Source of the DNA: Candidatus Latescibacterota bacterium
Lineage (GTDB): Bacteria; Latescibacterota; UBA2968
Length of the DNA stretch: 64,000 bases
Direction of reading: 5' to 3'
Assembly: GCA_965198115.1 (NCBI GenBank)
Contig: OZ240241.1
Coordinates: 1,632,001 to 1,696,000, forward strand
Position 1 is the stretch's first letter. The number at the start of each line of letters is the position of its first letter. Made by a program: the position numbers and the translations under genes. Positions 45,011 to 62,608 of the stretch are shown here, in pieces. Under the pieces are notes generated by a model. That model was given only the letters and a program-made list of their open reading frames with translations. It did no database searches and had not been told where the DNA came from.

Positions 45011-45018
45011 GAAACGAA

Positions 45019-45124
45019 CACGAAGACGCGAAGTCGCGAAGTCGCGAAGGATAGAACGGATGATCACTACCCCGTGCGTGTGGAGATCCGAAGTTGTCTT
45101 TCTTCGAGCCTTCGTGACTTCGTG
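45019..45124. repeat. Octamer tandem repeats in inverted arrangement (CRCGAAGN x4 ... NCTTCGWG x3)
   Basis: CACGAAGA CGCGAAGT CGCGAAGT CGCGAAGG at 45019-45050 and TCTTCGAG CCTTCGTG ACTTCGTG at 45101-45124. Confidence 0.7.
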
Positions 45125-45132
45125 TTGATTCT

Positions 45133-46128: not shown

Positions 46129-46216
46129 GCGGTGGACGGTTACGACGGGCCTCATTCTCGTGGGCGGTGGTAGTGGGCGGTCGGCGGTAAAGACGGACTT
46201 CGCGACAACCTTGGGC

Positions 46217-46264
46217 CCCTCGACTTCGCTCGGGATAAACTCCGGGGCGAACGGCGGTTCGCCC
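46217..46264 (+). repeat. REP-like repeat CCCTCGACTTCGCTCGGGATAAACTCCGGGGCGAACGG
   Basis: Related to the copies at 36107 and 42423; lies between dppD and dppF. Confidence 0.6.
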
Positions 46265-46300
46265 GATGTTAAAGCCCACAACATTGCGTGAACGACACAA

Positions 46301-47328
46301 ATGACCGAGACAAACGGAAAATCTGAAGTTCTGTTCGAGATCGAAGACCTCAGGACCTATTTCCCAATCAAGAAAGGGATCTGGCGAAAGGTCGTCGGCC
46401 ACGTCAAGGCGGTGGATGGCGTCAGCATGACGCTGCACCGTGGGGAAACGCTGGGGCTCGTCGGCGAAAGTGGGTGTGGGAAAACCACGACGGGGCGATC
46501 GATGATCCGGTTGATCGAACCGACGAGTGGCCGTGTGACGTTCCACCACGACGGTCAGGCGATCGATCTTCGAAACGTCGAGAAGGAAGAGCTTAGAGGC
46601 CTGCGACGTTACCTGCAATACATCTTCCAGGACCCCTTCTCATCGCTCAACCCGCGCATGACCGTGTTCGACATCGTCGCGGAGCCGCTCGTCATCAACC
46701 AGATCGCCAGCGGATCCGAACTGGAAGGGCGCGTCGAGCAGCTGCTCGTTCGCGTCGGCCTTAGACCCGATCATCTTCGCCGCTATCCGCACGCGTTCAG
46801 CGGTGGACAACGTCAGCGCATCGGAATCGCCCGGGCACTCGCCCTCACCCCTCGTCTCATCATCGCGGACGAACCGGTCAGCGCGCTCGACGTCTCGGTC
46901 CAGGCTCAGGTCATCAATCTAATGGAAGAGCTTCAGGAGGAATTCGATCTTACCTACTTGTTCGTTGCGCACGACCTGAGTGTCGTCGAGCACATCAGCG
47001 ACCGCGTTGCCGTCATGTATCTCGGCCAGATCGTCGAGATGACCGAGGCCAGCCAGCTCTACGAACGTCCCTTGCACCCCTACACCGTTGCACTCATGTC
47101 GGCTGTTCCCGTCGCGGACCCCGATCACCGCATGGACCGTGTCCCCCTCGAGGGCGACGTCCCCGATCCGCCGACGCCCCCTCCAGATGCAAATTCCATC
47201 CTCGTTGTTCCTACGCGCAAGACATCTGCAAGACGGACGACCCCTCGCTACGCGAAATCGAGCCCGGTCACGAAGCCAGCTGTCACTTCGCGGGCGAGCT
47301 CGAGTTTCAACAGATCCAACCCGCCTGA
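46301..47328 (+). CDS. Peptide ABC transporter ATP-binding protein (DppF/OppF-like), frameshift near 47170
   Basis: [16 protein letters not shown] and DEPVSALD. The conserved C-terminus CKFHPRC...GHEASCH is in another frame, ending at TGA 47326-47328. Confidence 0.9.
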
Positions 47329-47787
47329 CATCGAACATCGAGAATCGAAAAAAGCACGATACATCCGACCGACCGCCGCTCGATACCACGGGTCCGAGCG
47401 TGAAATCTTGAAGCCGTTGACCACATCGACTCCGTCCTCCAGGCTGTCGACCAGTCGTCGCAGGTCGGCGACACGATACTGCCCGTCGCCGTCGGTATAG
47501 AAGACCCATTCTCGTGAAGCGTTTTTGAACCCGGTCGTCAGAGCCGCACCGTAGCCCCGGTTTTCCCCGTGGGCGATCACCCGCACAGCCGGAATCGCCC
47601 CGGAGATTTTATGGAGACGTTCGATACTCTTGTCCGAGCTGCCATCGTCCACGACCAGAATCTCGTATTCCGAAGCGAGAGACCCGGCCAGGTCGTCGGC
47701 CTCGATCACCAGCTCGCCGATCGTATGTTCGTCGTTGTAACAGGGGAAGAAGATCGACAGAGAAGACAGGCGAGGGGCCGTAGGCAT
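47248..47787 (-). pseudogene. Glycosyltransferase family 2, apparently truncated at the 3' end
   Basis: FFPCYND, VVDDGSSD, NRGYGAAL and YTDGDGQY. Homology ends around residue 147, where the gene collides with convergent dppF. Confidence 0.65.
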
Positions 47788-48887
47788 TCAGACTGATCGC
47801 GCAGGGTCGACACCACGCGATCGACTTCTGCGTCCGTCAGTTCGGGATAGATCGGCAGACACAGCACATCTCTGCAAATACGTGTCGAGACGGGAAGGTC
47901 GGTGGGAATCCTGCGAAACGTCGAGAACGCGGGCTGCTCGTGCAGGGCGCGCGGATACAGCACGCCCGTGCCGATGCCGGCTGACGACAGCCGGGCCTGG
48001 AGACCGTCCCGATCCGGATGTCGTACGCAGAACTGGTGAAAAACGTGGTCGGCCTCCACAGCGGGCAGTCGCAGGTTCAGGCCCGACAGCCCCTCGACGT
48101 ATCTTCCCGCGACTTGGCGTCGGCGGGCATTGTCCCGATCGAGGTGTGCGAGACGAACGCCCAGAACAGCCGCCTGGATGTCGTCCAATCGGCTGTTCAT
48201 GCCCAGCTCCAAGCTGACCTGGCGTTCCTGCCACCCGTATTGCCTCAGCGTCCTCGCTCGTTCGAGGAGGCCGGTGTCGTCGCTCGCCAGGCAACCGCCA
48301 TCTCCCAAAGCAGGAAGGTTCTTCGTAGGATAAAAGCTGAAGGCGGAAACATCCCCAAAACTGCCCGTCAGGCGATCTCCTATTCGGGCACCGTGCGATT
48401 GCGCGCAATCCTCGACGACGCTGAGGCCGTGTTCTCGGGCGATCGATCCTAAACGCTCCATCGGAGCGGGACAGCCGTAGAGGTGGACAGGGAGGATAAC
48501 CTTCGTGGCGGAACAGACGGCCTCCGCGACCCGTTCGGGGTCGAGTGTGCAAGAATCCGGATCGACGTCGACCAGCACCGGACGCGCTCCCGAACGGACG
48601 ACGGCCGTGGCTGTCGCCGACGCGGTCACTGCCGGCACGAGCACCTCATCCTCCGGCCCCAATCCAAGCGTCCTCAGGGCCAGCTCGAGCGCGTCCGTTC
48701 CGCTCGCCGTTCCCACGACGCCCGCCACCCCGAGGTAGTCTGCGAACGCGCGCTCGAACCGATCGCACGCCGCCCCCAGCACATACCACCCGCTATTCAG
48801 GACCTCAGCAATCGCCTCGTCGATCTGTGTCCGAAGCCGGTCATAGCCGCGACCCGGGGCGGCGGGGTGGATGGAAGGTTGACCCAT
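47706..48887 (-). CDS. DegT/DnrJ/EryC1/StrS-family aminotransferase
   Basis: SGTDAL, PVHLYG, EDCAQSHG, FSFYPTKNL..LGDGG and NSRLDDIQAA. The true stop may be near 47790 (TGAATG junction). Confidence 0.92.
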   Translation of the reverse strand: MGQPSIHPAAPGRGYDRLRTQIDEAIAEVLNSGWYVLGAACDRFERAFADYLGVAGVVGTASGTDALELALRTLGLGPEDEVLVPAVTASATATAVVRSGARPVLVDVDPDSCTLDPERVAEAVCSATKVILPVHLYGCPAPMERLGSIAREHGLSVVEDCAQSHGARIGDRLTGSFGDVSAFSFYPTKNLPALGDGGCLASDDTGLLERARTLRQYGWQERQVSLELGMNSRLDDIQAAVLGVRLAHLDRDNARRRQVAGRYVEGLSGLNLRLPAVEADHVFHQFCVRHPDRDGLQARLSSAGIGTGVLYPRALHEQPAFSTFRRIPTDLPVSTRICRDVLCLPIYPELTDAEVDRVVSTLRDQSECLRPLACLLCRSSSPVTTTNIRSASW

Positions 48888-48917
48888 CAGATCACGATGA
48901 ACAGGAGAGCCACGTCC

Positions 48918-49250
48918 TCACCCGTTCAGCTGTCTCAGAAACTGGAAGGTATAGATACCGGAGTCGTGGCCATCCTTCCACACGATCTGGATCGCATACC
49001 GACCGACCTTCTGGATTCGGTCGATTTCTGCGCTGGCTGCCATCTGGCCGGGGGTGATCACGTGCAGGTCGCTCGACGATGTCTCACGGTGGCTCTCGCA
49101 GACCGCACACGGACAGCTCCGTCTGAGAAGGTCGAGCGGCAAATTCGATCTCGTTCGGTCACGCCACTCGATCTGCATCGTGGCGTCTTCGACCGATACG
49201 TGGATTTTCTCGGGCACAGCGGGATTCACGTCGGCACCTTGACTTTTCAT
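48918..49250 (-). CDS. DUF971 / gamma-butyrobetaine hydroxylase N-terminal-like domain protein
   Basis: IEWRD...LRRSCPCAVC...VGRYAIQIVWKDGHDSGIYTF..LR. Confidence 0.88.
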   Translation of the reverse strand: MKSQGADVNPAVPEKIHVSVEDATMQIEWRDRTRSNLPLDLLRRSCPCAVCESHRETSSSDLHVITPGQMAASAEIDRIQKVGRYAIQIVWKDGHDSGIYTFQFLRQLNG

Positions 49251-49370
49251 CTCCCGGACCTACATTTCGCCAAACCGTGGTCGAAGGCATTCACCGGGCC
49301 GAGGTTTCAGACCTCCGGCCCGGAACTTTTTCTGCTAAAATGAGTATAACTCACAGCACCTGTTGAAGAT

Positions 49371-50132
49371 ATGAACGTTCTCCACATCAGATTCGGACAC
49401 TCGCTGCTCTCGACGCTCGCCAGAGCCACGCTCGTTCAGAAGCAGTTTCAACGGCTCCTGGCCGACCGGCCGACGGGTGTGCGCGTGGCGTGCCGTAGCA
49501 AGCAGCCACACGCCGACCTGAACAGCCGTTACACCGCCATCACGCTGCGGTCCGCCGGAGCCACGGCCGGAGCCATGCTCCTCTCCTTCCTCCTTTACCC
49601 GGAACACATCCCAACCGTCGGCCAGGGCACGCGAAGACCCGCCATAATTCACGTGGAACACATTCCGGAGACGGTGCAGAGAACACAGCCACCTGCCCCA
49701 CCCAGACCCGTCGTTCCGATCGCGGTCGAGGGGGACGTGCCCGACACCGTCACCATCGAACCCACAGACCTCGACCTCGATGCCATCCCCATCGACCTCT
49801 CCCTCTCCGGGCCTCCTGGAGGGGGCGGGCCCCTTTCAGACGAGCCCATGGACGCGTCCGAGATCGACTACAAACCCCACCTGCTCACGCTCATCATGCC
49901 GGCGTTTCCGAGCGAGGCCCGAAGGGACCGATTGAAATCCGGATCCGCGAAGGTCAAGCTGCTGGTCGACAAACGGGGAAAGGTCGAAAAGGTGGAGTTT
50001 GTGGATGGACCTGCGGTGTTCAGAGAGGAAGCGATCTCCACAGCCTACCGCTACCGGTTCCGCCCGGGCAAGCATCAGGGGGAAGTCAGAAAAGTGTGGA
50101 TGGAGATTTCGATACAGTTCCGATACGACTGA
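49371..50132 (+). CDS. TonB-family energy transducer-like protein (start uncertain)
   Basis: TM segment, Pro-rich linker and C-terminal P.FP..A...G...V..LVD..GKV...YRFRPGK..G. Confidence 0.78.
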   Translation: MNVLHIRFGHSLLSTLARATLVQKQFQRLLADRPTGVRVACRSKQPHADLNSRYTAITLRSAGATAGAMLLSFLLYPEHIPTVGQGTRRPAIIHVEHIPETVQRTQPPAPPRPVVPIAVEGDVPDTVTIEPTDLDLDAIPIDLSLSGPPGGGGPLSDEPMDASEIDYKPHLLTLIMPAFPSEARRDRLKSGSAKVKLLVDKRGKVEKVEFVDGPAVFREEAISTAYRYRFRPGKHQGEVRKVWMEISIQFRYD

Positions 50133-50139
50133 AACCTCA

Positions 50140-50622
50140 CTACCCGTCGGAATCATCCGTTTTCTTCAAGGACGCGATCTGCTCGTTTGCCGCTCTCAGC
50201 CTCTTGGAGAGGACGCGCGTCATGTTGAGCACCATACTCAGGTGCGCATCACGATGTGCCTCGAAGAAAAGCCGAAGGGTTTCGAGTGGGAATTCCAGCA
50301 ACATCGCCTCGGGATCCGCCCGGACCGTCGCTGACCTCGGCAACACATCCACGAAAACCATCTCGCCAAAGAAGTCCCCGCGGCGGTGCAGCCGCGTCAA
50401 CTCGACCTTGTTCCCGTCGCCCGTCTTTTTCTCGATGACCACCTCGCCATCGTGAAGGATATACATCGATTCACCGGGCTCCCCCTCCTCCACGATCACG
50501 TTACCATCGCGGAACTGGTGAATCGCGGCCGCGCCGACGAGAGATTCCAGCTCGTCCATGTTCAGGCCGACCAGAAGTGGCGACAGGCTCAATGTATGGT
50601 AGTCGATCTCGCTCATGTTCAC
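50140..50622 (-). CDS. Cyclic nucleotide-binding domain protein
   Basis: IVEEGEPGESMYIL..GEV...GDFFGEM...PRSATVRA. Confidence 0.9.
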   Translation of the reverse strand: MNMSEIDYHTLSLSPLLVGLNMDELESLVGAAAIHQFRDGNVIVEEGEPGESMYILHDGEVVIEKKTGDGNKVELTRLHRRGDFFGEMVFVDVLPRSATVRADPEAMLLEFPLETLRLFFEAHRDAHLSMVLNMTRVLSKRLRAANEQIASLKKTDDSDG

Positions 50623-50626
50623 TCGT

Positions 50627-51328
50627 TCATCGACGGGTCACACCGTGTCTCAGCGTCAATTCCTGCAGCAGCACGCCGTAGGACGTCCTCAGGCTCGAAT
50701 CGAGACGAAAGGCGTGCCGGTAGGAACGAGCCGCCTCCCGATAAAAACCCTTGGCCGTCAGCACCCGCCCCAGAAGAAGGTAGTTTTCAGCGAAATCGGG
50801 CGCCAGCTCGGTAATCCGCGTGGCCATCTCGTGGGCGGTCTCGAAGTCTCGACGAGCCACGTGAATCCAAGCCTTCCCGAATCGGCTGTGGGGGTTCGTC
50901 GGATCCTTCTCCTCGGCAAGACTGTAGTAGAGGAGGGCGTTGTCGAGGTCTCCCGATCGGTGATACAGATAGCCGAGGCTCGACAGAATACCTGCATCGA
51001 GGGTGTCGATGGCCGCAACCTGCAGACCAGCCTGGATCGACTGCTCCAGGTCATCGAGGTGCAGGTAGCAACTCGCCAAGAGTCGCAGGGCTTGAAGGTG
51101 ACCCGTACGGTGAAGCAGGAAATCGCCCAACTCCGATGCGGCCGAGGCGTAATCCCCGTTTTCCATCGAAAGCCGTACACCGTCGAGACCGGGGTCGAGT
51201 ACGACTCCTGCCGTATCCGGACTCAGGTCGATGTCGGCTGGCTGTAGCAGCGCATCGAGGCCCGTCTGGGCGTATCCGGCCCCGCCGAGCAGGAGCCAAA
51301 CGAACGCCACCACGCAGAACCGACTCAT
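50627..51328 (-). CDS. Secreted TPR protein
   Basis: Signal peptide followed by TPR-like helical repeats (LGYLY...GDLDNA, LGRVL...G.Y.EA). Confidence 0.8.
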   Translation of the reverse strand: MSRFCVVAFVWLLLGGAGYAQTGLDALLQPADIDLSPDTAGVVLDPGLDGVRLSMENGDYASAASELGDFLLHRTGHLQALRLLASCYLHLDDLEQSIQAGLQVAAIDTLDAGILSSLGYLYHRSGDLDNALLYYSLAEEKDPTNPHSRFGKAWIHVARRDFETAHEMATRITELAPDFAENYLLLGRVLTAKGFYREAARSYRHAFRLDSSLRTSYGVLLQELTLRHGVTRR

Positions 51329-51963
51329 CCTACCACTTTCCCCTTCAGATAGAGCAACGAGTATATCCCCAGGACGCCCCCGAACCCTCCGACGACGATC
51401 ACGATGGTCGTGTTCGACAGTCCACCGAGGGTCCCGAGCACTTCTGCGTGCAGCTTGACGAACGCCTCGTTCCCGGGTTCCAGATCGAGCACCCGTTCGA
51501 TGGCTGTCCGCGCTTGGGCTTCCTCACCACGACCGTAATGAATCCGAGCAAGGTTGTAATAGGCCGTGGCGACATCCGGGGACACACGAACCGCCTGGCG
51601 ATACAGCCGCTCGGCAGCCTCCGGCTTCCCCTGTCTTTCGTAGACCGTACCGAGGTTGTTGTAGGCGTCGCCGTCCTTGGGATCCAGCTTGAGCACTTCC
51701 CGATAATACTTCTCTGCAAGGTCGTATCGTTTTTGAACAAAGCAGAGATACGCCAGATTGTAACGCGCATCTCGATGCTTGGGGTCGCGCTTGACGACCT
51801 TGAGATAGAGATCGACCGCCTTTCTCAGATCTTTCGGACGGTCGATACCCAGTTGCGCCTGCTGGGCCTGTTCGAAGAGCGCATCCGTCTCGTCAGCGTG
51901 AAGATACGCCGGGAAAAGCCCTGCCAGGGCCGACACGAAAGTAACCACCCAAACGCGGACCAA
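51325..51963 (-). CDS. TPR protein with a signal peptide and a C-terminal TM anchor
   Basis: ARYNLA, AYNNLG and AYYNLA repeats; hydrophobic C-terminal helix. Confidence 0.85.
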   Translation of the reverse strand: MVRVWVVTFVSALAGLFPAYLHADETDALFEQAQQAQLGIDRPKDLRKAVDLYLKVVKRDPKHRDARYNLAYLCFVQKRYDLAEKYYREVLKLDPKDGDAYNNLGTVYERQGKPEAAERLYRQAVRVSPDVATAYYNLARIHYGRGEEAQARTAIERVLDLEPGNEAFVKLHAEVLGTLGGLSNTTIVIVVGGFGGVLGIYSLLYLKGKVVG

Positions 51964-52254
51964 TCGTTCCTCTCTGAACAGGACTAAAATGGGAACATCA
52001 GATCGATTCGGGTTCTCAGGCTACTCGCGAACCGAACCTCGTCGAGAGACATGACGATGGGCGGCCGGTGCCTCCATAAGTCGAGGCACAGCTGCGCCGA
52101 GATGTCGAGTCGGCGGCTCGCGAGCCGCGCGACGAGGAAAGAGACCGTCAAGAGTCGGATCACGTCAAGTCCTGTTCAATGCTTAAATCATAGCATCGGC
52201 CTCCAACCGGAGTCAAGCTCGATTGGCGATCCAATGTATTTAAGAATCAAGGTG

Positions 52255-53367
52255 TTAGTTGTCCATCGCCCCCTGGTCGATCCAAAGCCGGACCAGCGCC
52301 AGGTCCCCACCGTTCAAAAAAGGCCCGCCCTGCGGCATCCTGTCCCCCAAAATGCCGGCTGAACCGGATATTTTCTGCATCAGGTAACTCGAGTCGGGCG
52401 ACCCGGGTGTCACACGCGGGGTCGTCGGAACCTGGGAGCTGGCCACACCGACCAGCGCCCGCCACGCCGTGTCGGCCGCCATTACCAGACCCTCCCCGGG
52501 GGGAAATCGATCGGATGCCGCGTGGCACCCGACGAACGCACAGTTTTGGTCGAACAGGGGTTGGATGTCCCGCGAAAAACCGGTCTCGGGTCGATAGGAG
52601 AAGGATTCGGACAGGGTGGCCGCACGGAGTCCGTCCGCGCCCATCACGCCGTCGATCTCGATCGTAAGAGAAACGCCCGCGGCGAGCGGCGACGTCGTCG
52701 CAGTCAGCAGGTCCGCTCCGTCGAACATCGTCGACAGAACGCTAACCTCACCCGCATCGGTCGTCACACGAACGGTTGGAATCAGAGCGGAATCGACCGC
52801 CTTCGTGAACGTGATCTGGACGCGGTCTGCCGCCGACGCGACGACGGCCCGGATATCGGGGGGCGTCGGGGGGGCTTTCGTTCGGAGCGCTCCCGCGCCG
52901 ATCCAGTCGCGGATCGCGGCGATCTCCGCAATATCCAAAGGGGGGCGCTCCAGCGGCATGCGGTCCCCAAAAGCCACGCGACCCGCGGAGTCTACGCCCT
53001 CGAGTTTCCAGATGAGCAGGCTGTTGTCGGGGTCGCCAGCGATCACCTGAGGACCGTTCCGGCTCAGAGTCGGGTCGAAGAGCTCATCGTAGCTGACCGG
53101 TGAGGTGAGATCGAGCCCGGCGTCTCTCTCGCCCACGCCTCCTGGCTCGTGGCAACCCCCCGTACACGACCGGTCGAACACATCCTGGACATCTCGATCG
53201 AAGAACGACGAGGTCCCCGACGGGGCGGCCACAATCGGTGCGGTCGTGAAGGTCTGCCGCGTTCGAACATCGCTGCAGGCCACGATCAACACGGCCAGCA
53301 CACAGATCGTCACTGGTGGCAGTAGCCGCAAAAGCCGACACCCCCCGTGCGTGTGTTGACGTGACAC
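52255..53367 (-). CDS. Putative lipoprotein cytochrome c with two atypical heme motifs (alternative start GTG 53313)
   Basis: Lipobox-like LIVAC; two similar domains F.RD.Q..FD..C(X3/X4)CH...PG.PD.S.L..K...GDRMP...WI..GA flanking an Ig-like region. Confidence 0.78.
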   Translation of the reverse strand: MSRQHTHGGCRLLRLLPPVTICVLAVLIVACSDVRTRQTFTTAPIVAAPSGTSSFFDRDVQDVFDRSCTGGCHEPGGVGERDAGLDLTSPVSYDELFDPTLSRNGPQVIAGDPDNSLLIWKLEGVDSAGRVAFGDRMPLERPPLDIAEIAAIRDWIGAGALRTKAPPTPPDIRAVVASAADRVQITFTKAVDSALIPTVRVTTDAGEVSVLSTMFDGADLLTATTSPLAAGVSLTIEIDGVMGADGLRAATLSESFSYRPETGFSRDIQPLFDQNCAFVGCHAASDRFPPGEGLVMAADTAWRALVGVASSQVPTTPRVTPGSPDSSYLMQKISGSAGILGDRMPQGGPFLNGGDLALVRLWIDQGAMDN

Positions 53368-54473
53368 GCGTAGCAGGTCGCTCCGTCATCGGTATGGAAG
53401 TCTCCTCGGCCGGCTACGTCGGCGAAGTTCACCCCGTGGGTGGCCGGGTCCGTCCCCCGGACACCATCGAAGTCCACGTGGCACTGCAGACAACTCGGGT
53501 CTGCGGCATCGACGTCGTGACAGGCGATGCATCTTTCGATGTCGCGTCGCGCCCACGATGCGTGACGCCCGCCACCCGACCCCATTCCCGCCACCCAGGG
53601 CTCCGGGTCCTGGGGCAACGGACCGTGCCAGATCGGTTTAAATCGTTCCTCCCTGTCCTCAACGCGGTGGCAATCGATGCAGTAGTCCGGTTCGTGGCAG
53701 GACTGACACCGCCGTTCCTTCCCAGCTGCGTCGAGAGGATGCAGAAATCGATAGTTGGGTTCGTGCTGTCTTTGCACCACCTGCCCGATCCTTCCCCGCG
53801 AACTCGGGGCATAAGTCGGAACCCGGTCGGTCGGACTCGACGCCTGGACCAGGAGAGCGCCGGCGTGGCAGTCCTCGCACCAACTGTCGTCGTGGCATTT
53901 TTCGCACGGCATGTCGTCGGCACGACTGTGTTGTTTGTGTTCGTAAACCCAATCCACCCGGTGAGTCTGTGGTCGAATGACCTCCACCCTGGGATGGCAG
54001 GTCTCACACACCAGCGGGGCGTCAGCGTCCTGGTGACAGGTCAGACAGTCGTCCATGATCGGCCAGTTGTGCCGGCTGGCATAGTCGGTCTCCGTCATCC
54101 CCAGGTGGCACCCCTCGCACGACAGCTGAACCGTCTCGAGATGGTACCCGTGTGGAAACTCGATCAGCCGTTCGGGACTGTCGAACGCGACCCTCTGGAC
54201 GTCGGGCCGGTGACACATTCCACACTGCGTTTCGTCCTCGACCTCGCTGTGACACGTGCCACACGTCGCTTCCTTGGGCAGAATGTTGTCACGCGATCGC
54301 GAGCTCGCAGCCGCCTCCGTATGACAGTCCACACACGTCAAGCCGTAGTCGAGCAGGTGCTCTGCGTGCGAAAAGATGATCAGGGCAGATCGATTCTGCT
54401 CGGGTATCGTCACGTGCGACCTGTCTTCGGCGTGGGCGGCCCACACCATCACAAGTGCGGTGATCAGAATCAT
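53310..54473 (-). CDS. Periplasmic multiheme cytochrome c (14 CxxCH motifs)
   Basis: Signal peptide MILITALVMVWAAHA; FSHAEH and FPHGYH c7-like motifs; 14 CxxCH motifs counted; ATGA overlap with the upstream gene. Confidence 0.92.
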   Translation of the reverse strand: MILITALVMVWAAHAEDRSHVTIPEQNRSALIIFSHAEHLLDYGLTCVDCHTEAAASSRSRDNILPKEATCGTCHSEVEDETQCGMCHRPDVQRVAFDSPERLIEFPHGYHLETVQLSCEGCHLGMTETDYASRHNWPIMDDCLTCHQDADAPLVCETCHPRVEVIRPQTHRVDWVYEHKQHSRADDMPCEKCHDDSWCEDCHAGALLVQASSPTDRVPTYAPSSRGRIGQVVQRQHEPNYRFLHPLDAAGKERRCQSCHEPDYCIDCHRVEDREERFKPIWHGPLPQDPEPWVAGMGSGGGRHASWARRDIERCIACHDVDAADPSCLQCHVDFDGVRGTDPATHGVNFADVAGRGDFHTDDGATCYACHVNTRTGGVGFCGYCHQ

Positions 54474-55816
54474 CGAGGCCCACGCTTCGCAAAAATCCAT
54501 CCGGTCGCGCTGAAGAAGAAACGCAGATCGTGTCCGTTTCCCGGAAACGGATTCGCCCGCGTGGCCAGTTTGAGATCCTGAGAGAGATTCTGTCCTTGCA
54601 GGGTGAGGCTGAAGCGTCGCATCGGTCGAATGTGGAGACCCAGCGTCTGCGATGCGACCATCGACCGCGAGCCGCCCGCTTCGTGCGTCTTGAATCGAGT
54701 CAGATTGAAGGACGCCTCGGCCCACACGCGTTCGTGGAGTGTCTTTCGAACGACCGAGGTGACCCCGTCGGAAACGCCACCCGAGCCACGGCGTGCCACG
54801 TATCCGACGACACCGTTGAGCACCTGGGCGCCCGCGTTGAAGCGAGCTCCTCGATCGGAGGCATAGTCCACGAGACTCGCGATCCCGAAGAGCCCGAAGA
54901 AACGGTTGAACCGGTAGGTTCCGCGCAGGGAGTATTCCTGATTTCCGGCCTGGGCGAACACCGCGAAGAGACTGTTCTGGTCAACGTAGGGTGTGCGGTG
55001 TATGAAGTCCGCCGAGAGGGAGGTAGGACCGCGCTGAAAGCGGAGGACGCCCTCGACGCGACGCGTCTTCCAACCGTCCGGGATGCTCGTATCCCACCTG
55101 AAGTACCCCGAAAGTGGGCCGACCTGGCGTCGCAGATCAAGGCCGGCCATTTCCTGCTCGACTTCGCCCGGTTTGATCTCCAAAGCGGAAAGGCCCGCGG
55201 CTTCACGGTACTCTGCGCGATAGGGTTTGGCTTCTCGGCTGCGGCGGTAATAGCTCAGACCCATTGTGGTTCCCGCCAGCGTAGACAGAAACCGACCGCC
55301 GTAGATGTGGCCCTCGCTCCACGACGAGACCCCTTCTTCTCCGGCGGCCACGAGTGTACCCACGTAGAAGTCCCATTCCCCCACTCCGGAAGCGCGGCCC
55401 GATGCACGCAGGCCATCGATCCGACCGACACCCACACCCGACAGGATCGTCTGTCGCCCGAATTTCCCCACGAACCGTCGACCCGCGTCCCGATACCTCA
55501 CGAACCCGTGGTAGAGTCGGTAGGCAGGGTCGCCGCCGATGCCGGCCCTCATCTCCTTCGACATCCTTCCATAGACGTGAAGGGAGACCTCCGGGCGGCC
55601 GACGCCCATCAACCGGACGCGGCCCGTTTGGTAGACCCGGAAGGATCCAGTCGTCACCGAATCCTGAAGCGCCCGCTCGAACGTGTAGAACGCGGATGTG
55701 AACCGACCGGAAAGTGTTGTCCCCCAGACGGTTAAAGATAAAAAGTAGAGTAAACAGAGAAGGAGAAGCCCGCGGATCTGCCAGCCCGTCATCGAGTCGA
55801 ATCTCAGGAAGGTCAT
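54470..55816 (-). CDS. Putative outer-membrane beta-barrel (porin-like) protein
   Basis: Signal peptide; alternating aromatic/hydrophobic beta pattern throughout, GRQ motif and a final FFFSATGWIF strand; coupled to the multiheme cytochrome. Confidence 0.72.
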   Translation of the reverse strand: MTFLRFDSMTGWQIRGLLLLCLLYFLSLTVWGTTLSGRFTSAFYTFERALQDSVTTGSFRVYQTGRVRLMGVGRPEVSLHVYGRMSKEMRAGIGGDPAYRLYHGFVRYRDAGRRFVGKFGRQTILSGVGVGRIDGLRASGRASGVGEWDFYVGTLVAAGEEGVSSWSEGHIYGGRFLSTLAGTTMGLSYYRRSREAKPYRAEYREAAGLSALEIKPGEVEQEMAGLDLRRQVGPLSGYFRWDTSIPDGWKTRRVEGVLRFQRGPTSLSADFIHRTPYVDQNSLFAVFAQAGNQEYSLRGTYRFNRFFGLFGIASLVDYASDRGARFNAGAQVLNGVVGYVARRGSGGVSDGVTSVVRKTLHERVWAEASFNLTRFKTHEAGGSRSMVASQTLGLHIRPMRRFSLTLQGQNLSQDLKLATRANPFPGNGHDLRFFFSATGWIFAKRGPR

Positions 55817-55863
55817 TCAGGGAGCGGCGGTCGCGGACGCCTCGCTACGGGAGGAACGATCGA

Positions 55864-55984
55864 CTTGCCTGGGCTGTCGGAAATACAAATCCCGGCCTGC
55901 CGATCCGTGTCGTCGTAACGTCCGACGGCGTAGGGAGATCCGTCGGGGGGAAGACGACGGGGGAAAGCCGACAGGCCGGGCAAG
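55864..55984 (-). promoter_or_regulatory. Structured 5' leader of the porin-cytochrome operon (candidate cis-regulatory RNA)
   Basis: Segment 55968-55984 is complementary to both 55891-55903 and 55864-55880, with nested inner stems. Candidate promoter TTGCGG-N17-TACCTT at 56009-56037. Confidence 0.45.
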
Positions 55985-56058
55985 GTGCCTTTTTCCAATG
56001 ATTTACAAAAGGTAATACATGTCCAATGGGGCCGCAAGACCACGGGTGTTCGGATCCG

Positions 56059-57192
56059 TCAGGCCAACGTTTTCCACGCTACGGATCCCTCGACCGACTC
56101 GAATGCACCGTTTTTCGGGTTTTCGCTCAGGTTGAACAGAGTCTTTTTGCCGTCCAGACTCCACGATTCGAGCTGAGGCCCGATGTCCGATTGCTGGACC
56201 TTGGTTTCGGCCCAGGTTTCGTCCATCTCGATCACACCCGACGAGGAGTCCTTGACGTGCGAAAGTTGCAGGGCCCTCACGCGGCAGCCGGTGTGGATTT
56301 CTCCCCTAACCCGACACCGCACCGGGACAGCCTGTTCGAGTCCTTCCAGAAGCTCGTTCCGTTCCAGTTGGAGCCCCTCGACATCTTTCCGAAGCTGGTC
56401 CGCCCGTTGTACTATCATCACGTGCTCGCGGAGCTCTTCGATCACTTTTAGGAAAATCCTGTGCCGACTCGGGTTCTGGCTTACGTAACCTTTATTCGTT
56501 CGCGTGATCATGCCCACGACGACTTTCAGATAAAACTCCTGCAGGGCCCTCGCGGCGTCTTGCCTATCTCCCAAGGCATTGTAAAATGCGTTCAGATCGA
56601 CTTTCAGTTCCCCGGGACCCGGAATGAGAATGCTGCCCAGCCGCAAATCGACCTGGGGGTAATCCCGAATGAACTTTCGTGCGCCTGCCCCGACCTTCAC
56701 CTCGAGTGCTGAAAGTTCCTTGTCGATCGTCTGCATGGCGGCACGCTGTCGTTTGAGGTCTGTGATCTCTCCCGAGCGGTAGCCGAGGGAGACGACCGTC
56801 TCTCGGAGATCGCCACGAACTTCCACACCCATGTCCGAGTGAAGTTCGCTGTTTGCAACATCCCCTTGTACGACGATATGACGCGCCCGGATTCGGGCGT
56901 GCTGCACGGCTTTTTCCACGACCAGCGTCTCATCCACTTCTATCTGACACGTACCCCTCTCGTCACCCAGAACATCCCCGTTAATCGAGAGGTGGCCCCG
57001 CCCCGATATGACGCTGCTGCGAAAGACAGCGCCCTGGATCAGTCCGTTCTGATCGCCGAAATTCAGCTCGCCGCTTTCCGCGTTGACTTCGGGTACGACC
57101 CGAACTTCTTCTTCTTCCTCGGCGTGGTCGTCAGGTTCCGGCATAGAGCTCCCTTCCGTGCCCCCACTCCGATTCTCACCTTCCTGCGTCAT
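56059..57192 (-). CDS. Hypothetical protein, FapA/DUF342-like beta-helix plus coiled coil
   Basis: Repeated I.V.GDV-type beta-helix motifs, a coiled coil and C-terminal VRGEIHTGCRV. Confidence 0.55.
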   Translation of the reverse strand: MTQEGENRSGGTEGSSMPEPDDHAEEEEEVRVVPEVNAESGELNFGDQNGLIQGAVFRSSVISGRGHLSINGDVLGDERGTCQIEVDETLVVEKAVQHARIRARHIVVQGDVANSELHSDMGVEVRGDLRETVVSLGYRSGEITDLKRQRAAMQTIDKELSALEVKVGAGARKFIRDYPQVDLRLGSILIPGPGELKVDLNAFYNALGDRQDAARALQEFYLKVVVGMITRTNKGYVSQNPSRHRIFLKVIEELREHVMIVQRADQLRKDVEGLQLERNELLEGLEQAVPVRCRVRGEIHTGCRVRALQLSHVKDSSSGVIEMDETWAETKVQQSDIGPQLESWSLDGKKTLFNLSENPKNGAFESVEGSVAWKTLA

Positions 57193-57576
57193 TACCTAAA
57201 CCGCGAATCTCATCTCTCTTGTTGACCAGTTCCCGGGTCAGGTCGACCAGCCTCTTAATGGTCTCGGTCCTCACCGGCTTCGCCAGTACCAGATCCGTAT
57301 GTTCGAACACATCCTCCGACACTTCCTCCGTATATCCCGACACGATCGCGATCACTGCCCACGGCATCATACCCCGACGACGGACAGGATATCGATGCCG
57401 CTCACGCCCGACATTTTGATGTCCAGCGTGACCAGATCGAATCGCGTCTGGATGGCACGTGCCAGAGCCTCCTCGCCGCTTTCAGCCACCTCGACGAGAT
57501 CCGCCCCCAGCGTTCGAATGCTATCCGACAAAAAATCGCGAACATCCTGATCATCGTCTACGACAAGAGCTTTCAT
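57176..57576 (-). CDS. Stand-alone response regulator receiver domain, frameshifted near 57375
   Basis: MKALVVDDD...DLVTLDIKMSGVSGID, then after one inserted base RGMMPWAVIAIVSGY...LAKPV; paralog of 10543..10935. Confidence 0.8.
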
Positions 57577-57594
57577 GAGTCCTCCCAACTTCCT

Positions 57595-58311
57595 CTACGA
57601 CCCGAACTGTTTCGCAAGTTCCAGAAAGTCGACAAACCCGACCGTTCCATCCCCATCTAAATCGAACCGCGGGTCGAACCCGGACTCGCCGGCCGAAATC
57701 CCAAACCCACTGGCGAACCTCAAAAAGTCGGCAAAGTCGACGCGGCCGCTCCCATCGAAGTCGGCGGAGACCGCGCTCTCCTGCAATCGACCCAGTTGAA
57801 TCACCCCCAGAGGGGAGCCCGCTTCCGGCGCGACGGACGCCGCGAGGGAAGACAGATCGCCAAGCGTGATCGGACGGATCAGCGTGAGAGAGTCGCCTGC
57901 CGCGGTGAAACTGAGGCTATCCGTCGTGTTGGCTGAGGTCAAGACGAGCGTTGTGTCGTCGACCCGGTAGGTGCCCCCTTCCTCCACCGTATCCCTGACG
58001 CTCACCTGAAGAGGGGCACCCAGAACGGTCAGAGCCACATCGACCCGAAGCACATAGGCAAGCGAAAAACCATCCGCCGAATCCAGATTCAGCTGCCCCG
58101 ATACGAGAGCGGTCAGTGCCAGATCGTCGGCTGCGGCCGTAAGCGCCGGATCGGCGTAAACCTGAACGACGACGTCGGCTCCACCCCACAACCCGGCGGG
58201 ATCGCCGCCCGACGCGATCGGCACCTCGTCCAGCGTCTGGCCCGCGGCTGTGGCCGCCGACAAAAGAATGCCCACGAACAGGAAGATCCGACGACTACGT
58301 CCACGATTCAT
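57595..58311 (-). CDS. Secreted protein with a C-terminal dockerin/EF-hand-like domain
   Basis: Signal peptide; ADFDGSGRVDFADFLRFASGFG...FDLDGDGTVGFVDFLELAKQFG. Confidence 0.82.
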   Translation of the reverse strand: MNRGRSRRIFLFVGILLSAATAAGQTLDEVPIASGGDPAGLWGGADVVVQVYADPALTAAADDLALTALVSGQLNLDSADGFSLAYVLRVDVALTVLGAPLQVSVRDTVEEGGTYRVDDTTLVLTSANTTDSLSFTAAGDSLTLIRPITLGDLSSLAASVAPEAGSPLGVIQLGRLQESAVSADFDGSGRVDFADFLRFASGFGISAGESGFDPRFDLDGDGTVGFVDFLELAKQFGS

Positions 58312-58467
58312 CGGATAAATATACAACTCCGCGGACCGAGATGAAGCCATCATGTTGCCCTTGAGTTCCCGCGTCGGCCGCGACGAACTTCCCAGCCACA
58401 AGGGGGATTCCTGTGCAACGATCAATTTGGGTGCCCAACCGCCCGTCCGCCCCCAGACCCGAAAGCA

Positions 58468-59291
58468 TCAGGGCCATCGCGTCTCGAACGCGTCCATCCC
58501 CTGGCCATAAACCAGGTCCCCATACACCCGCCATTCGGTCAAGACTCCATCTGCCAGGGGCGCGTCTTCCTGGAGCACACCCAGATTCACGTCCAACTCG
58601 GCCACCGTCGAAGGAGCTGTCATCGCCACCTGAACGGCGGGGTGCGAGAGCGCGAAACGATAGCAGTCGACGGGAGTAGGGACACGCCTCGTCCACTCTG
58701 AGTGGCCCTGGAGGAGAGAACCCCATCGAGTGCACGTGAACGCCACGACGGGGACCTGTGAGTCGAGCGCCGTCGAGAGCAGGTTCGACTCGGACTTTCT
58801 GTGGGCCATGTTGTAACGATGCATCACCACGTCGACGCGACCGGACGCCACAAGACGCTCAGCCAGCGGACGGTCGTGGACGCTCGCACCCACGTACCGG
58901 GTTCTTCCCTGATCCTTGAGCGATTCAATCGTCCGCAGTGCCCCATCCTCACCCAGAATCGTATCGAGATCCTCCTCCGGCGACACATACTCCGCGAAGA
59001 ACACATCCACATCTTCAATGCCAACTCGCTCCGAAACCTCATCGGCGTATGCCAGAATCGCGTCGGGCGATCGGTCTTCTGTACCTGTGGCGACGATCAA
59101 GGACTCCCTGCGATCACGGCAGACACGGCGCAGACCTTCCACCATTCCGTCGAACCGCATCGAGTAGAAAACAGGTAGTTCACGCCAGCCCGCACAGCCC
59201 GGTCCACCATCTGCGGCGTGGTGCGATCGTTGCCCCCGAGACCCAGGACAGACGCCCGTTCTCCTTCCCGACTGTGAATCGGATTATTCAC
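58468..59291 (-). CDS. Aldo/keto reductase family protein, frameshifted near 59170
   Basis: N-part SVLGLGG...AVRAGVNYLF; C-part LKDQGRTRYVGASVH, VMHRYNMAHR and YRFALSHPAV. Confidence 0.8.
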
Positions 59292-60357
59292 GATCGATAT
59301 CGACGTGTCGTTTCTGCTCGCTCGATTGGTAGGCCGCCTCGACGACTTTGCCGACTTCCAGCGCGTCCGCGCCGGAGGCAGGTGGCGATCCATCGGTCAG
59401 AGCAGCTTGGATGAAGTCATCCAGGAAGGCAACCCCGTAGACACCACCATATGCGTCGTTTTCCGCGAGTGTGTATTCGAAGGTCTTCAGCGGGGTCGAC
59501 TGCCAGGCCGGTGCCACACTCGTGAGCTCCAGACGGGGCGGCTCATTCGAAGGCCGCCACACGAGTTGACCTTCACTCCCCCGAATCGCGACATATGAAT
59601 CGTAGCTCGGGCCCATGTAGCCCGCCCCACTGATCGACAGCTGGTATCCGGCCTGGAGGCTCCCGATGACACCGGTCGAGAATCGCACGGACACCGATGC
59701 GACATCCTCCACGTCGATCGCTTCCCCGCTGACCGTGTCGACCATCGCGCTCACGGACACGATTTCGTCATCCAGCAGGTAGCGCAACAGATCCACGTAA
59801 TGACACCCCAACCACGACAGGATGCCGCCCCCGGAAACCGACCGATCGAACAGCCAGTGGGTGGGGTCCCTGAACTGGACCTGCGAGGTGACCATGCGTG
59901 CCTCGCACGTCGTGATACGACCCAGGGCACCGTCTCGAATCAGCTTCCGGGCGTCTCGCGAAATAGGATGATACCGGTTCTGATACATCACCCCGAGCGT
60001 CCGCACCCCTTCCCGTGCGATTCGGACGACCTCACGCACCGACCCGCTGGTCGGTCCGATCGGTTTTTCGCTGAGGACGTGCGTGCCCCCGCTCAGCATT
60101 CTGCCACAGACCTCCGCGTTCACGTCATTCGGCATGCAGGCGACGCCGATCGGGCACGCCTCGCCCAGGATACCGTCCACATCGCTGAAGCCACGGACGA
60201 CCTTTTCGCACGTCGATTGCGCCTCATCGAGCGCCCGGGCGTCTTCATCGTAGACAACGACCTCGTCCACACGGTCGCTGTGAGAAAGGGTTCGCAGATG
60301 AGCGGCCGAATGCGGGTGCCTCAACCCGAAAAAGGCCACTTTGGTGCCATCGCTCAC
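59284..60357 (-). CDS. Gfo/Idh/MocA-family oxidoreductase
   Basis: HVLSEKP, GGGIL..LGCHYVD, VEDVA and EAAYQS. Confidence 0.92.
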   Translation of the reverse strand: MSDGTKVAFFGLRHPHSAAHLRTLSHSDRVDEVVVYDEDARALDEAQSTCEKVVRGFSDVDGILGEACPIGVACMPNDVNAEVCGRMLSGGTHVLSEKPIGPTSGSVREVVRIAREGVRTLGVMYQNRYHPISRDARKLIRDGALGRITTCEARMVTSQVQFRDPTHWLFDRSVSGGGILSWLGCHYVDLLRYLLDDEIVSVSAMVDTVSGEAIDVEDVASVSVRFSTGVIGSLQAGYQLSISGAGYMGPSYDSYVAIRGSEGQLVWRPSNEPPRLELTSVAPAWQSTPLKTFEYTLAENDAYGGVYGVAFLDDFIQAALTDGSPPASGADALEVGKVVEAAYQSSEQKRHVDIDRE

Positions 60358-61769
60358 GGATCACCCTCCTTGAAATAGGGCTCGTCATCAACCGCCAGTT
60401 GTAGTGTCCTGAGCTCCCTTCGAAGAGACGCGACCGTGGTCGCATACTCGGGATCCTCGTAGACGTTGTTGAGTTCATAGGGATCCTTGTTCAAGTCGAA
60501 CAACTCCCATTCTGGCGTCTTGGTCTCATCGACCGTCCCGGGCTGGCCCAACGCATCCGCGTAGTAGTAGATCAACTTGTGATCGTGCGTTCGGATCCCG
60601 TAGTGTGCGTAGACGTGGTGCTGTGACAGATGCATCCAGTAGCGGTAATACATCGACGATCGCCATCCCTCGGGCGCCTCCCCCTCCAGAATAGATCTGA
60701 AGCTGCGACCCTGGAAGTAATCGGGTACCGCGACTTCGGCGTAGTCCAGGAAGGTGGCAGGAAAGTCGACATTCAGAGCCATGTCATTGCTCACGCGGCC
60801 GGGGGGGATCTCGCGCGGATACCGAGCGATGAACGGCATCCGCAAGGATTCCTCATACATAAACCGCTTGTCATACCACCCGTGGTCACCCAGGAAGAAA
60901 CCCTGGTCGGACGTGTAGACAACCAGTGTGTCGTCGGCGATCTCTTCGGACTCTAGGTAGTCGAGGACGCGACCGACGTTGTCGTCGATGCTGGCCACGC
61001 AGCGGAGGTAGTCCTTGATGTAGCGTTGATACTTCCAACGCTTCTCCTCATCGGGAGACAGGCCTTCCGGCGTCGGGCCTTTTAGATCGCGCTCGATGAG
61101 GTCGCGGTCCACCCTCATTCTGGCCTCTTTCGCCGCCGAAGCTCTGTTTTCGTAATCGTCCCAGAACGTCTTCGGCTCCGGAATGTCCACGCCGTCGTAC
61201 ATCGTAGCGTGTTTCTCGTCGGGCTCCCACCAACGATGCGGCGCCTTGTGATGAAGCATCAGGAAAAACGGCCGATCGCGATCCCGGTTGTCGAGCCACG
61301 CGAGCGACAGGTCGGTGATGATGTCTGTCACGTATCCATCGAGTCGCCGCGACGTTCCCATCTTGCTCATCTCCGGGTTGTGGTAGTCGCCTTGCCCGGG
61401 AAGAACGTCCCAGTAGTCGAATCCCGTCGGGTCGTGGTGTCCACCGTGACCCAGATGCCACTTCCCGACGATTGCCGTCTGATAGCCGCCCGCACGCAAG
61501 AGTTTGGCGACGTTCTCCTGACGCCCGTCGAGTTTTGCTCCCAGAGTCGTCACGCCGTTCACGTGGTTGTAGGTACCTGTCAGGATGGTCGCGCGGCTCG
61601 GCGTGCAGATGGAATTCGTACAGAAGCAGTTGTCGAATCTCACACCCGACTTCGCGATCCTGTCCAGGTTGGGGGTCTCGTTGATTCGGCTCCCGTAACA
61701 ACTCATGGCATGAGATGCGTGGTCGTCCGACATGATGAACAGGATATTCGGTCTATCAGCCACGATCAT
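60354..61769 (-). CDS. Sulfatase (Cys-type formylglycine motif)
   Basis: RPNILFIMSDDH, CTPSRATILTG, GKWHLG, HKAPHR and SDQGFFLGDHGWYDKR. Confidence 0.95.
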   Translation of the reverse strand: MIVADRPNILFIMSDDHASHAMSCYGSRINETPNLDRIAKSGVRFDNCFCTNSICTPSRATILTGTYNHVNGVTTLGAKLDGRQENVAKLLRAGGYQTAIVGKWHLGHGGHHDPTGFDYWDVLPGQGDYHNPEMSKMGTSRRLDGYVTDIITDLSLAWLDNRDRDRPFFLMLHHKAPHRWWEPDEKHATMYDGVDIPEPKTFWDDYENRASAAKEARMRVDRDLIERDLKGPTPEGLSPDEEKRWKYQRYIKDYLRCVASIDDNVGRVLDYLESEEIADDTLVVYTSDQGFFLGDHGWYDKRFMYEESLRMPFIARYPREIPPGRVSNDMALNVDFPATFLDYAEVAVPDYFQGRSFRSILEGEAPEGWRSSMYYRYWMHLSQHHVYAHYGIRTHDHKLIYYYADALGQPGTVDETKTPEWELFDLNKDPYELNNVYEDPEYATTVASLRRELRTLQLAVDDEPYFKEGDP

Positions 61770-62599
61770 CTCCCTTGCTGCAGCTCTGCCCCACAACACC
61801 GGCAGTAGACAGCGTCGGCGTGATGTCCTTCCGCTGAGCAAGACGGACAGGCCTGCGTCGAGACCGTGATGTTCGACCGTGTCATCTCCGCAGTCACGAT
61901 GCCCGTCGGTACGGCGATGATGCTATATCCGAATATCATAATGACCGCCGCAATCGATTGGCCCAACCCGGTACGGGGCGAAATGTCACCGTAGCCGACT
62001 GTCGTCAGTGTGACGATCGCCCAGTAGATGCTCCTCGGAATGCTCGTGAACCCGTTCTCGGCACCCTCGATCACATACATGGCCGATCCGAAAATCACGA
62101 CGATCGTCGCCACCGTGAACAGGAAAACCGTGATTTTCCTCCGGCTCGCCTGCAGGGCCGCCCCGAGGTGCTCCGCCTCCCCCACGTATTGAACGAGCTT
62201 CAGAATCCTGAAAACCCTCACCAGCCGGAGCGCGCGGATGACCCTGAAATACTGGGTCCCCGGCAACAGCACGCTCAAGTAGGTGGGTACCACGGCCAGC
62301 AGGTCTACAATCCCGTAGAAGCTCCGGGCATAGCCGAGGGGTCGTCGGACGGCGAACAGCCGGAGAATGTACTCGATCGTAAAGAGAATTGTAAAACCCC
62401 ACTCGAGTCTCAAGAGCAACGGTCCGTGAACCCGACGGATCGATGAGACGCTGTCCACCATGGCTACTGCGATGCTGCCCAGAATGCAAAGGATGAGCAC
62501 GATGTCGAAAATCTTGCCCGCGCGAGTATCCGCCTCGAAGATCACTTCGTGGAGGATCGCCCTCACGTTCGATTCCGGTCTTGCTCTGGATTCGCTCAC
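61766..62599 (-). CDS. Voltage-gated potassium channel-like ion transporter
   Basis: S4 segment RVIRALRLVRVFRILKL, selectivity filter TTVGYGD and C-terminal CPSC...C..C. Confidence 0.93.
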   Translation of the reverse strand: MSESRARPESNVRAILHEVIFEADTRAGKIFDIVLILCILGSIAVAMVDSVSSIRRVHGPLLLRLEWGFTILFTIEYILRLFAVRRPLGYARSFYGIVDLLAVVPTYLSVLLPGTQYFRVIRALRLVRVFRILKLVQYVGEAEHLGAALQASRRKITVFLFTVATIVVIFGSAMYVIEGAENGFTSIPRSIYWAIVTLTTVGYGDISPRTGLGQSIAAVIMIFGYSIIAVPTGIVTAEMTRSNITVSTQACPSCSAEGHHADAVYCRCCGAELQQGR

Positions 62600-62608
62600 T
62601 GGAAACCG

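Follow-up and report, generated by a model that had tools for sequence, protein, structure and literature searches.

Three genes that follow one another on the minus strand of Candidatus Latescibacterota contig OZ240241.1 (positions 1,632,001 to 1,696,000, a stretch of 64,000 nucleotides hereafter called the window) are predicted to encode an outer-membrane β-barrel, an exported multiheme cytochrome and a lipoprotein with two heme domains. The question raised by this locus is whether the three products form a wire that carries electrons across the cell envelope and, if so, in which direction. Porin-cytochrome genes are usually taken as markers of metal reduction or oxidation, and what determines the direction of such a conduit is an open question. 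We consider a trans-envelope conduit, whatever its direction, likely; inward flow through it to oxygen respiration is slightly favoured, a combined reading that we put forward tentatively. Judged from the genes, what is new here is a Latescibacterota variant in which a multiheme third gene is replaced by an unrelated, weakly FoxE-like, putatively diheme lipoprotein, together with the genomic setting of that variant. The initial annotation of this DNA, which had proposed an extracellular electron transfer operon, overlooked both the swapped diheme His/Met cap and the missing ImcH and CbcL, which leave the direction open.

The three minus-strand open reading frames (ORFs) described in that annotation were located in the sequence at 55816-54470, 54473-53310 and 53313-52255:

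54470..55816, minus strand: gene 1, outer-membrane β-barrel, 448 amino acids (aa); probably 440 aa from the ATG at 55792
53310..54473, minus strand: gene 2, exported c-type cytochrome with 14 CxxCH motifs, 387 aa
52255..53331, minus strand: gene 3, lipoprotein with two class-I-like heme domains and an immunoglobulin (Ig)-like spacer, 352 aa from 53313; likelier start at the TTG at 53331

The ATGA overlap between genes 1 and 2 and the GTGA overlap between genes 2 and 3 can both be read in the sequence. The second ATG of the barrel gene (55792) is its likelier start because it lines up with the starts of the two closest relatives. The TTG at 53331 gives the lipoprotein an N-terminus resembling those of its two closest relatives; this start is preferred, and the GTGA overlap is thus probably not the true gene junction for which it had been taken. 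The genes are intact in the window, show 39-76% identity across the order and have a GC content (62-63%) inside the range of the 64-kb window. The three-gene operon is real and well conserved.

The expectation that the 448-aa protein is a β-barrel agrees with an AlphaFold2 model built on an 88-sequence alignment, which predicts 22 strands (pLDDT 91.9, pTM 0.84) and no plug domain. The signal peptide extends to approximately residue 32, leaving a mature protein of 416 aa (residues 33-448). In structural searches the barrel portions of TonB-dependent receptors came out on top (best Z 20.2, rmsd 4.2, 373 residues aligned); ushers are also among the matches, and MtrB (6r2q_B) aligns with Z 16.0 and rmsd 6.3 over 361 residues. 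Identity as a TonB-dependent receptor was rejected, the plug being absent and the matches extending over the barrels only. By sequence, no solved relative was found. The window barrel matched no Pfam or NCBIfam model, a few of the 88 family members weakly matched generic barrel models in these collections, and none of the 88 matched the MtrB/PioB models; with no dedicated model in either collection, the family is missed by standard annotation. In Atlas it sits among unnamed barrels (score 0.98), and the nearest clusters include a Thermodesulfobacteriota "porin family protein," which is a lead only. A 22-strand barrel lacking a plug would leave a large hole, for which an occupant may be expected. 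The barrel has a net charge of +24, and the side that strand alternation suggests to be the lumen carries 27 Lys/Arg against 10 Asp/Glu, with many conserved Arg; the cytochrome, at -27, is its complementary opposite.

The cytochrome possesses exactly 14 CxxCH motifs. A six-frame survey of the 8.4-Mb genome found no other frame with more than eight, and 14 motifs are present in 115 of the 118 aligned family members, that is, the window protein and 117 of the best 120 proteins listed from 615 matched. Since the other frames reach eight at most and the family keeps 14, the number is far beyond chance. The protein is laid out as two c7-type triheme domains (hemes 1-6) followed by an 8-heme C-terminal half. 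It scores PF14522 over the cut-off, and profile positions 30-166 match PDB 3ov0 (E 6.8e-31). For the C-terminal half, comparison of the profile with PDB found no solved relative; residues 276-387 are the most conserved region of the 118-sequence alignment. Twelve non-motif His residues are 99-100% conserved and Met140 is 81% conserved; conserved candidate distal ligands number 13 for 14 hemes, and in the first c7 domain the residue at the equivalent distal site can be K, M, H, or E. Shorter versions with 11-12 hemes adjoin the same barrel in other Latescibacterota (L135-L140; L numbers are our handles for sampled loci and genome regions), which suggests that the length of the wire is adjusted.

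The tandem c7 triheme modules, which make up the N-terminal 165 residues of the window protein, resemble the c7 polymer of PDB entries 3ov0 and 3ouq, which we take to be GSU1996. The window cytochrome differs from this polymer in having two modules only, in the unrelated 8-heme half that follows, and in that its gene adjoins that of a barrel. GSU1996 has been described as wire-like (PMC11492766).

Co-conservation of the genes, which the initial annotation had made a test of its proposal, was followed in a GTDB scan. This gave at least 600 stretches, 547 of them encoding a relative, from which the best 80 loci were kept. Counts for these 80 (the best of at least 547) are by an ORF test, by which broken genes are missed, and the loci overlap in part with the sets of close-relative and phylum genomes used below. 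The loci are titled Latescibacterota, KSB1, Calditrichota, Kryptonia, Ignavibacteria, and Bacteroidota, with some Latescibacterota filed as Gemmatimonadetes; three records so filed belong to the marine Latescibacterota class UBA2968 according to PMC9874027. The barrel gene lies directly upstream of the cytochrome gene in 72 loci and approximately 0.2-1.6 kb away in five; upstream DNA is absent in the remaining three. Barrel and cytochrome are therefore neighbours in 77/80 loci and in five phylum-level groups (Latescibacterota, KSB1, Calditrichota, Kryptonia, and Ignavibacteria), and the predicted linkage stands. The gene after the cytochrome is a multiheme protein at 49 loci, a diheme lipoprotein at six, other or undetected at 19, and off the contig at six. 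A further protein with at least four hemes occurs at 69 loci, the 11 without it being the nine closest to the window (L001-L009) and two short loci. In a quick cytochrome tree of the 72 rows with both genes full-length, which leaves out truncated or split genes, the window groups with eight of those nine (SH-aLRT 100). The host is most likely a member of Latescibacterota, as the tree and the record titles indicate. Neighbours at other loci include ImcH-like proteins (NapC/NirT region, first motif CXXXCH, a feature given for ImcH in PMC4251993) and CbcL-like proteins (multiheme plus cytochrome b). Cytochromes with 8-9 hemes and a type IX secretion system (T9SS) tag adjoin the same barrel/14-heme pair at Ignavibacteria- and KSB1-like loci (L031:4411-6015 and L016:3615-5291).

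These data bear upon the proposition that no transmembrane wire exists, the barrel being a channel or export pore and the other two products merely co-expressed periplasmic redox proteins. The top fold matches of the barrel are transporters and ushers, the N-terminal half of the cytochrome resembles a periplasmic polymer, and with 13 conserved ligands for 14 hemes one heme may be accessible to a substrate. Against this, barrel and cytochrome stay strictly adjacent across the five groups while the third gene changes freely, as Shi et al. describe for porin-cytochrome conduits (Pcc; PMC4245776), and the barrel has conserved lumen-side Arg and no plug. We regard the absence of a wire as unlikely. 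The conduit reading is drawn from the plugless barrel, its adjacency to the cytochrome, the other multihemes at 69/80 loci, the charge complementarity, and the maturation genes (ccm) described below.

To what known system does such a conduit belong? Pcc clusters are characterized by Shi et al. (2014; PMC4245776) as having porins of 18-22 strands and periplasmic cytochromes of 5-14 hemes. The window barrel has 22 predicted strands, the overlapping adjacent gene has 14 CxxCH motifs, and in the place of the usual third gene, that for an outer lipoprotein cytochrome, stands one whose product has an invariant lipobox Cys and two invariant atypical motifs that would bind heme. In Ignavibacterium album, IALB_1838 is a 400-aa protein with 14 hemes whose flanking genes encode the porin IALB_1839, IALB_1840 as a periplasmic cytochrome, and IALB_1837 as an outer cytochrome whose motifs are atypical (PMC4245776). 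The Ignavibacteria loci found with the window profile have the order tetraheme, porin, 14-heme (392-405 aa), and 5-9-heme CxxxxCH protein, and their cytochromes are approximately 36-41% identical to that of the window. Both the window and the IALB_1840-1837 cluster thus run from porin to a 14-heme cytochrome of about 400 aa to a third gene with atypical motifs. They differ in that the third gene of the window encodes an unrelated lipoprotein, putatively diheme with His/Met ligation and divided by an Ig spacer, and that the tetraheme, ImcH, CbcL, and T9SS-tagged cytochrome are not nearby in the window. Protein-cluster look-ups returned names from Ignavibacteria and Stygiobacter but no I. album or M. 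roseus protein. As the Ignavibacteria loci share the layout of the I. album cluster, the core of the window operon very probably belongs to the Ignavibacterium-type Pcc family, a homology argued from layout, size, and heme count.

OmbB-like clusters have been reported in anode Ignavibacteria, and noted in M. roseus and I. album too, by Arbour et al. (PMC7399161). The initial claim that heme number and barrel size, compared with MtrA and MtrB, mark a distinct complex was not upheld, as both sizes lie within the Pcc range and the 14-heme I. album cluster has been known since 2014 (PMC4245776, PMC7399161). No report of the cluster in Latescibacterota was found in the literature searched, which left out most subscription journals; PMC5317091, PMC5492636, PMC10367259, and PMC11570789 yielded nothing about it.

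Other systems are more distant. Geobacter OmbB-OmaB-OmcB has the same order of porin, periplasmic cytochrome, and lipoprotein cytochrome, and a barrel of 18-22 strands; OmaB, however, has eight hemes and OmcB 12, compared with 14 in the window cytochrome and two putative ones in the lipoprotein. Electron transfer by the Geobacter Pcc has been tested across liposomes. Some outer cytochromes carry atypical CX3-4CH motifs, as does the window lipoprotein (PMC4245776). MtrCAB, MtoAB, and PioAB share with the window the concept of a barrel with an inserted multiheme protein, and MtrB aligns structurally, as given above. MtrB, however, has 28 predicted strands according to PMC4245776, compared with 22, and MtrA is a decaheme compared with 14 hemes and a c7-type N-terminal half, its chain 6r2q_A matching at only E 0.0017. 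No match to the DmsE/MtrA model was found for the window cytochrome. Membership in the Mtr/Mto group was rejected on the 14 hemes, the mature barrel of 416 aa versus approximately 650-700 aa, and the lack of MtrB/PioB matches. MtoAB and PioAB illustrate that such conduits can run inward. Both are listed as Fe(II)-oxidation proteins in PMC10654088. The three window proteins hit no NCBIfam model of ExtABCD/ExtEFG; no direct comparison with ExtA, ExtB, ExtE, or ExtG was made.

The lipoprotein is the part that sets the window apart. The initial description of a lipobox-bearing protein with two heme domains is correct for the lipobox and for two heme motifs, but these are atypical (CX3CH at C50-H55 and CX4CH at C258-H264) and a canonical CxxCH is absent. 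A search matched 49 proteins; an alignment of 28 shows no variation in the lipobox Cys, in either Cys-Cys-His set, or in Met119, and almost none in Met326. The heme domains are 36% identical to each other (E 7e-16), are duplicates, and in Atlas are of the PSCyt1-like type. Profile matches were found to FoxE (5mab, E 2.3e-5 over both domains), to the C-terminus of hydrazine synthase alpha (1.4e-5), and to a monoheme protein (4rlr, 0.005). A structural search with the spacer only found a resemblance to the Ig domains of S-layers (Z 15.4). A T9SS tail was not found on the lipoprotein; seven proteins in the window's genome carry such tails over the cut-off, none of them from the operon. As a single module, this heme domain is found in exported proteins of many relatives that have no conduit (for instance L111:5281-6807 and L112:5085-5585), and 34/61 close genomes have some match to it. 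His/Met hemes tend to be high-potential. The putative hemes of the lipoprotein may likewise be high-potential, and the protein could serve as an outer pick-up site or as a periplasmic relay. FoxE oxidises Fe(II) and is a diheme cytochrome with His/Met ligation; in that of Rhodobacter ferrooxidans SW2 (PDB 5MAB), the two c-type domains have Met, within an RMP motif, as distal ligand (PMC10654088), and both align weakly with the window protein. The latter differs in its lipid anchor, Ig spacer, and CX3CH/CX4CH motifs, and in having a barrel and a 14-heme protein as partners, not FoxY and FoxZ. Orthology with FoxE, or a FoxEYZ system, was rejected, the E value being only 2.3e-5 within a shared domain family and the neighbours being the barrel, the 14-heme cytochrome, TPR, and FapA-like genes.

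In the arrangement that we prefer, the 14-heme cytochrome would thread the plugless 22-strand barrel as an Ignavibacterium-type Pcc wire, with its conserved 8-heme C-terminal half inside the barrel, where positive charge prevails, and its pair of c7 domains reaching into the periplasm. The lipoprotein would take electrons from complexed Fe(II), reduced humics, or partner cells, or relay them in the periplasm, and they would go on to an aa3 oxidase, adding to the energy supply of a heterotroph.

The case for inward flow comes from the genomes that carry the system. The cytochrome was found in 14/61 close genomes and 10/17 genera, with none in two large genera (0/21 and 0/15), and in 24/168 phylum genomes. 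In all 13 cytochrome-bearing close relatives the barrel adjoins. The lipoprotein is the next gene in 11 of them, intact in eight and broken in three; 12 phylum members carry a 6-14-heme third gene in its place, and genome G054 has both forms. The 24 cytochrome-bearing genomes thus comprise 11 with the lipoprotein only (the window's included), 12 with the multiheme form, and G054. ImcH-like genes were found in 0/11 lipoprotein-only genomes versus 6/12 of the multiheme form, and CbcL-like genes, searched with one query protein, in 0/11 versus 11/12; at least one of the two is present in 11/12 multiheme-form phylum members, and both are in G054. Subunit I of aa3 oxidase is encoded by 12/12 lipoprotein carriers versus 7/12 of the others. 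From the lack of ImcH-like and CbcL-like genes in the lipoprotein-only genomes, the aa3 oxidase in every carrier, and a FoxE match spanning both lipoprotein domains, we surmise that electrons would run inward.

The host itself was examined for what a conduit would need. The expected maturation genes are present as matches to ccmE, F, A, B, C, and ccsB, of which ccmE, ccmA, and the ccsB-type are partly under the curated cut-offs. As for an inner-membrane quinol oxidoreductase, an alternative complex III (ACIII)-like enzyme, two Rieske/cytochrome b clusters, and NrfH are encoded, besides two aa3-type oxidases, but ImcH-like and CbcL-like genes were not found. Searches of the genome, whose completeness is 100%, found no RuBisCO, bd oxidase, or NiFe hydrogenase. 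Calvin-cycle autotrophy was rejected on the first of these, other carbon-fixation paths not having been searched, and because RuBisCO was not found electron uptake would be extra energy for a heterotroph. From its genes the host looks like an aerobic heterotroph in which few anaerobic outlets are intact; this would fit electron uptake to O2 and an outward route for emergencies alike.

In the host, at L083:5339-8717, nrfH is intact (over the cut-off) and nrfA is split by an ISL3 transposase; repeated transposase-like ORFs in L084, L089, L093, and L094 suggest active insertion-sequence expansion. L116:3122-10988 (G000:C1 about 4213100-4221000) holds a type II dimethyl sulfoxide (DMSO)-reductase-family cluster in which the gene for a Nar/Nxr-like alpha subunit is broken up into four frames, through either pseudogene formation or assembly errors. 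Its N-terminal motifs presumably recall those of the periplasmic Nitrospira/anammox-type NXR or of Nar. The beta subunit (436 aa) is intact, the gamma subunit (530 aa) has heme b and diheme c and matches TIGR03477 below the cut-off, and a probable chaperone is present. An operon at L087:2518-12463 combines a Rieske protein, a cytochrome b in split form, a membrane-anchored cytochrome of 1004 aa with eight hemes, and an aa3 oxidase, an unusual bc-oxidase arrangement; the 8-heme protein occurs in 30/61 relatives, including 22/22 in family f2. The other cluster with a Rieske protein and cytochrome b (L086:5802-8313) also encodes a hexaheme cytochrome and is a candidate quinol-side partner of the conduit.

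The same conduit could instead run outward, the direction presumed for the ancestral cluster. In anoxic spells quinol would be oxidised by ACIII, Rieske/cytochrome b, or NrfH in place of ImcH/CbcL, and the 14-heme wire, followed by the His/Met cap, would deliver electrons to acceptors of high potential, for example Fe(III) chelates, Mn oxides, humics, or partner cells. A family context of ImcH-like, CbcL-like, and T9SS-tagged multiheme proteins is what outward transfer typically shows; among the Ignavibacteria that have such clusters are Fe(III) reducers and anode dwellers (PMC7399161), and one cluster member is named Stygiobacter electus. The scarcity of anaerobic outlets in the host, with nrfA cut by ISL3, the Nar/Nxr-like alpha subunit frameshifted, and bd oxidase and NiFe hydrogenase not found, points the same way. 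On the other hand, in the lipoprotein form the lack of the dedicated quinol oxidoreductases ImcH and CbcL coincides with that of the multiheme outer cytochrome, and every lipoprotein carrier encodes aa3 oxidase. According to PMC4245776, I. album did not grow with Fe(III) or Mn(IV) oxides, which leaves even the known member without a demonstrated function. We rate outward flow only slightly below inward flow.

A number of observations nevertheless weigh against inward flow through the conduit. The FoxE match is weak and neither lipoprotein domain is significant singly; domains of this type also occur in unrelated proteins of many relatives, and since a type II secretion system/PilB-type ATPase was not found in the genome, display of the lipoprotein at the surface is without explanation. 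A single query protein was used for the CbcL contrast, and the set includes several incomplete genomes. The contrast between genomes also follows ancestry: the lipoprotein carriers are kin, one clade on the cytochrome tree, so that it amounts to approximately one evolutionary event, not eleven. The Rieske/cytochrome b/8-heme/aa3 operon is present in all 12 lipoprotein carriers, yet it is found in 30/61 relatives, 18 of them conduit-less; a specific tie to the conduit was therefore rejected, and the operon is regarded as a lineage trait. The ACIII, either Rieske/cytochrome b cluster, or NrfH could each drive electrons outward. The basic character of the barrel varies within its family (net charge -8 to +29), and a gene is broken in 4/11 relatives with the lipoprotein form, the fourth case being a split barrel and cytochrome.

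These broken copies, together with a patchy spread (14/61 relatives, and none in two well-sampled genera) and the TPR and probable cyclic-nucleotide-binding genes that follow the operon in several relatives, would suit a role outside energy metabolism, such as acquiring iron or other metals by reduction or buffering or sensing redox state outside the cell, or else a decaying relic. The window genes, however, are all intact and conserved across the order, inspection of the ORFs at window 44000-64000 showed none for iron uptake, and the breaks in relatives may be assembly errors. We judge a role of this kind unlikely.

Inward flow, if it is correct, invites a more specific and rather improbable history. 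An ancestral outward respiratory conduit of anaerobic members of the Fibrobacteres-Chlorobi-Bacteroidetes (FCB) group would have been rewired for uptake in aerobic marine Latescibacterota, with ImcH, CbcL, and multiheme surface cytochromes lost, a high-potential, FoxE-like diheme lipoprotein gained, and extracellular Fe(II), reduced organics, or neighbour cells feeding the Rieske/8-heme/aa3 chain. This would be a natural case of Pcc wire reversal and would supply a new marker of marine lithoheterotrophy. Uptake itself would give marine Latescibacterota an unrecognised part in iron and organic redox cycling; outward flow would make the locus simply another member of a described, functionally undemonstrated group. 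A single phylum has a homologous barrel and 14-heme core in two contexts, one with a multiheme cap and ImcH/CbcL and the other with a diheme His/Met cap and aa3 in which ImcH/CbcL were not found. The two forms, both of which G054 has, are a matched pair for a direct test of direction.

Two further features flank the operon:

55817..56058, minus strand: intergenic region of 242 bp, probable promoter region, with a weak sigma-70-like match at 56025-55998 (9/12; consensus match only)
52187..52216, minus strand: putative sigma-70-like promoter with extended -10 (10/12 consensus match), just past the lipoprotein stop

The position of the latter suggests that the TPR genes further downstream form a unit of their own and that the operon consists of three genes. 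Downstream, at window 50140-51963, are two TPR genes and a probable cyclic-nucleotide-binding gene, and upstream, at 56059-57192, is a FapA-like gene; these positions are kept in several relatives, which is probably lineage synteny.

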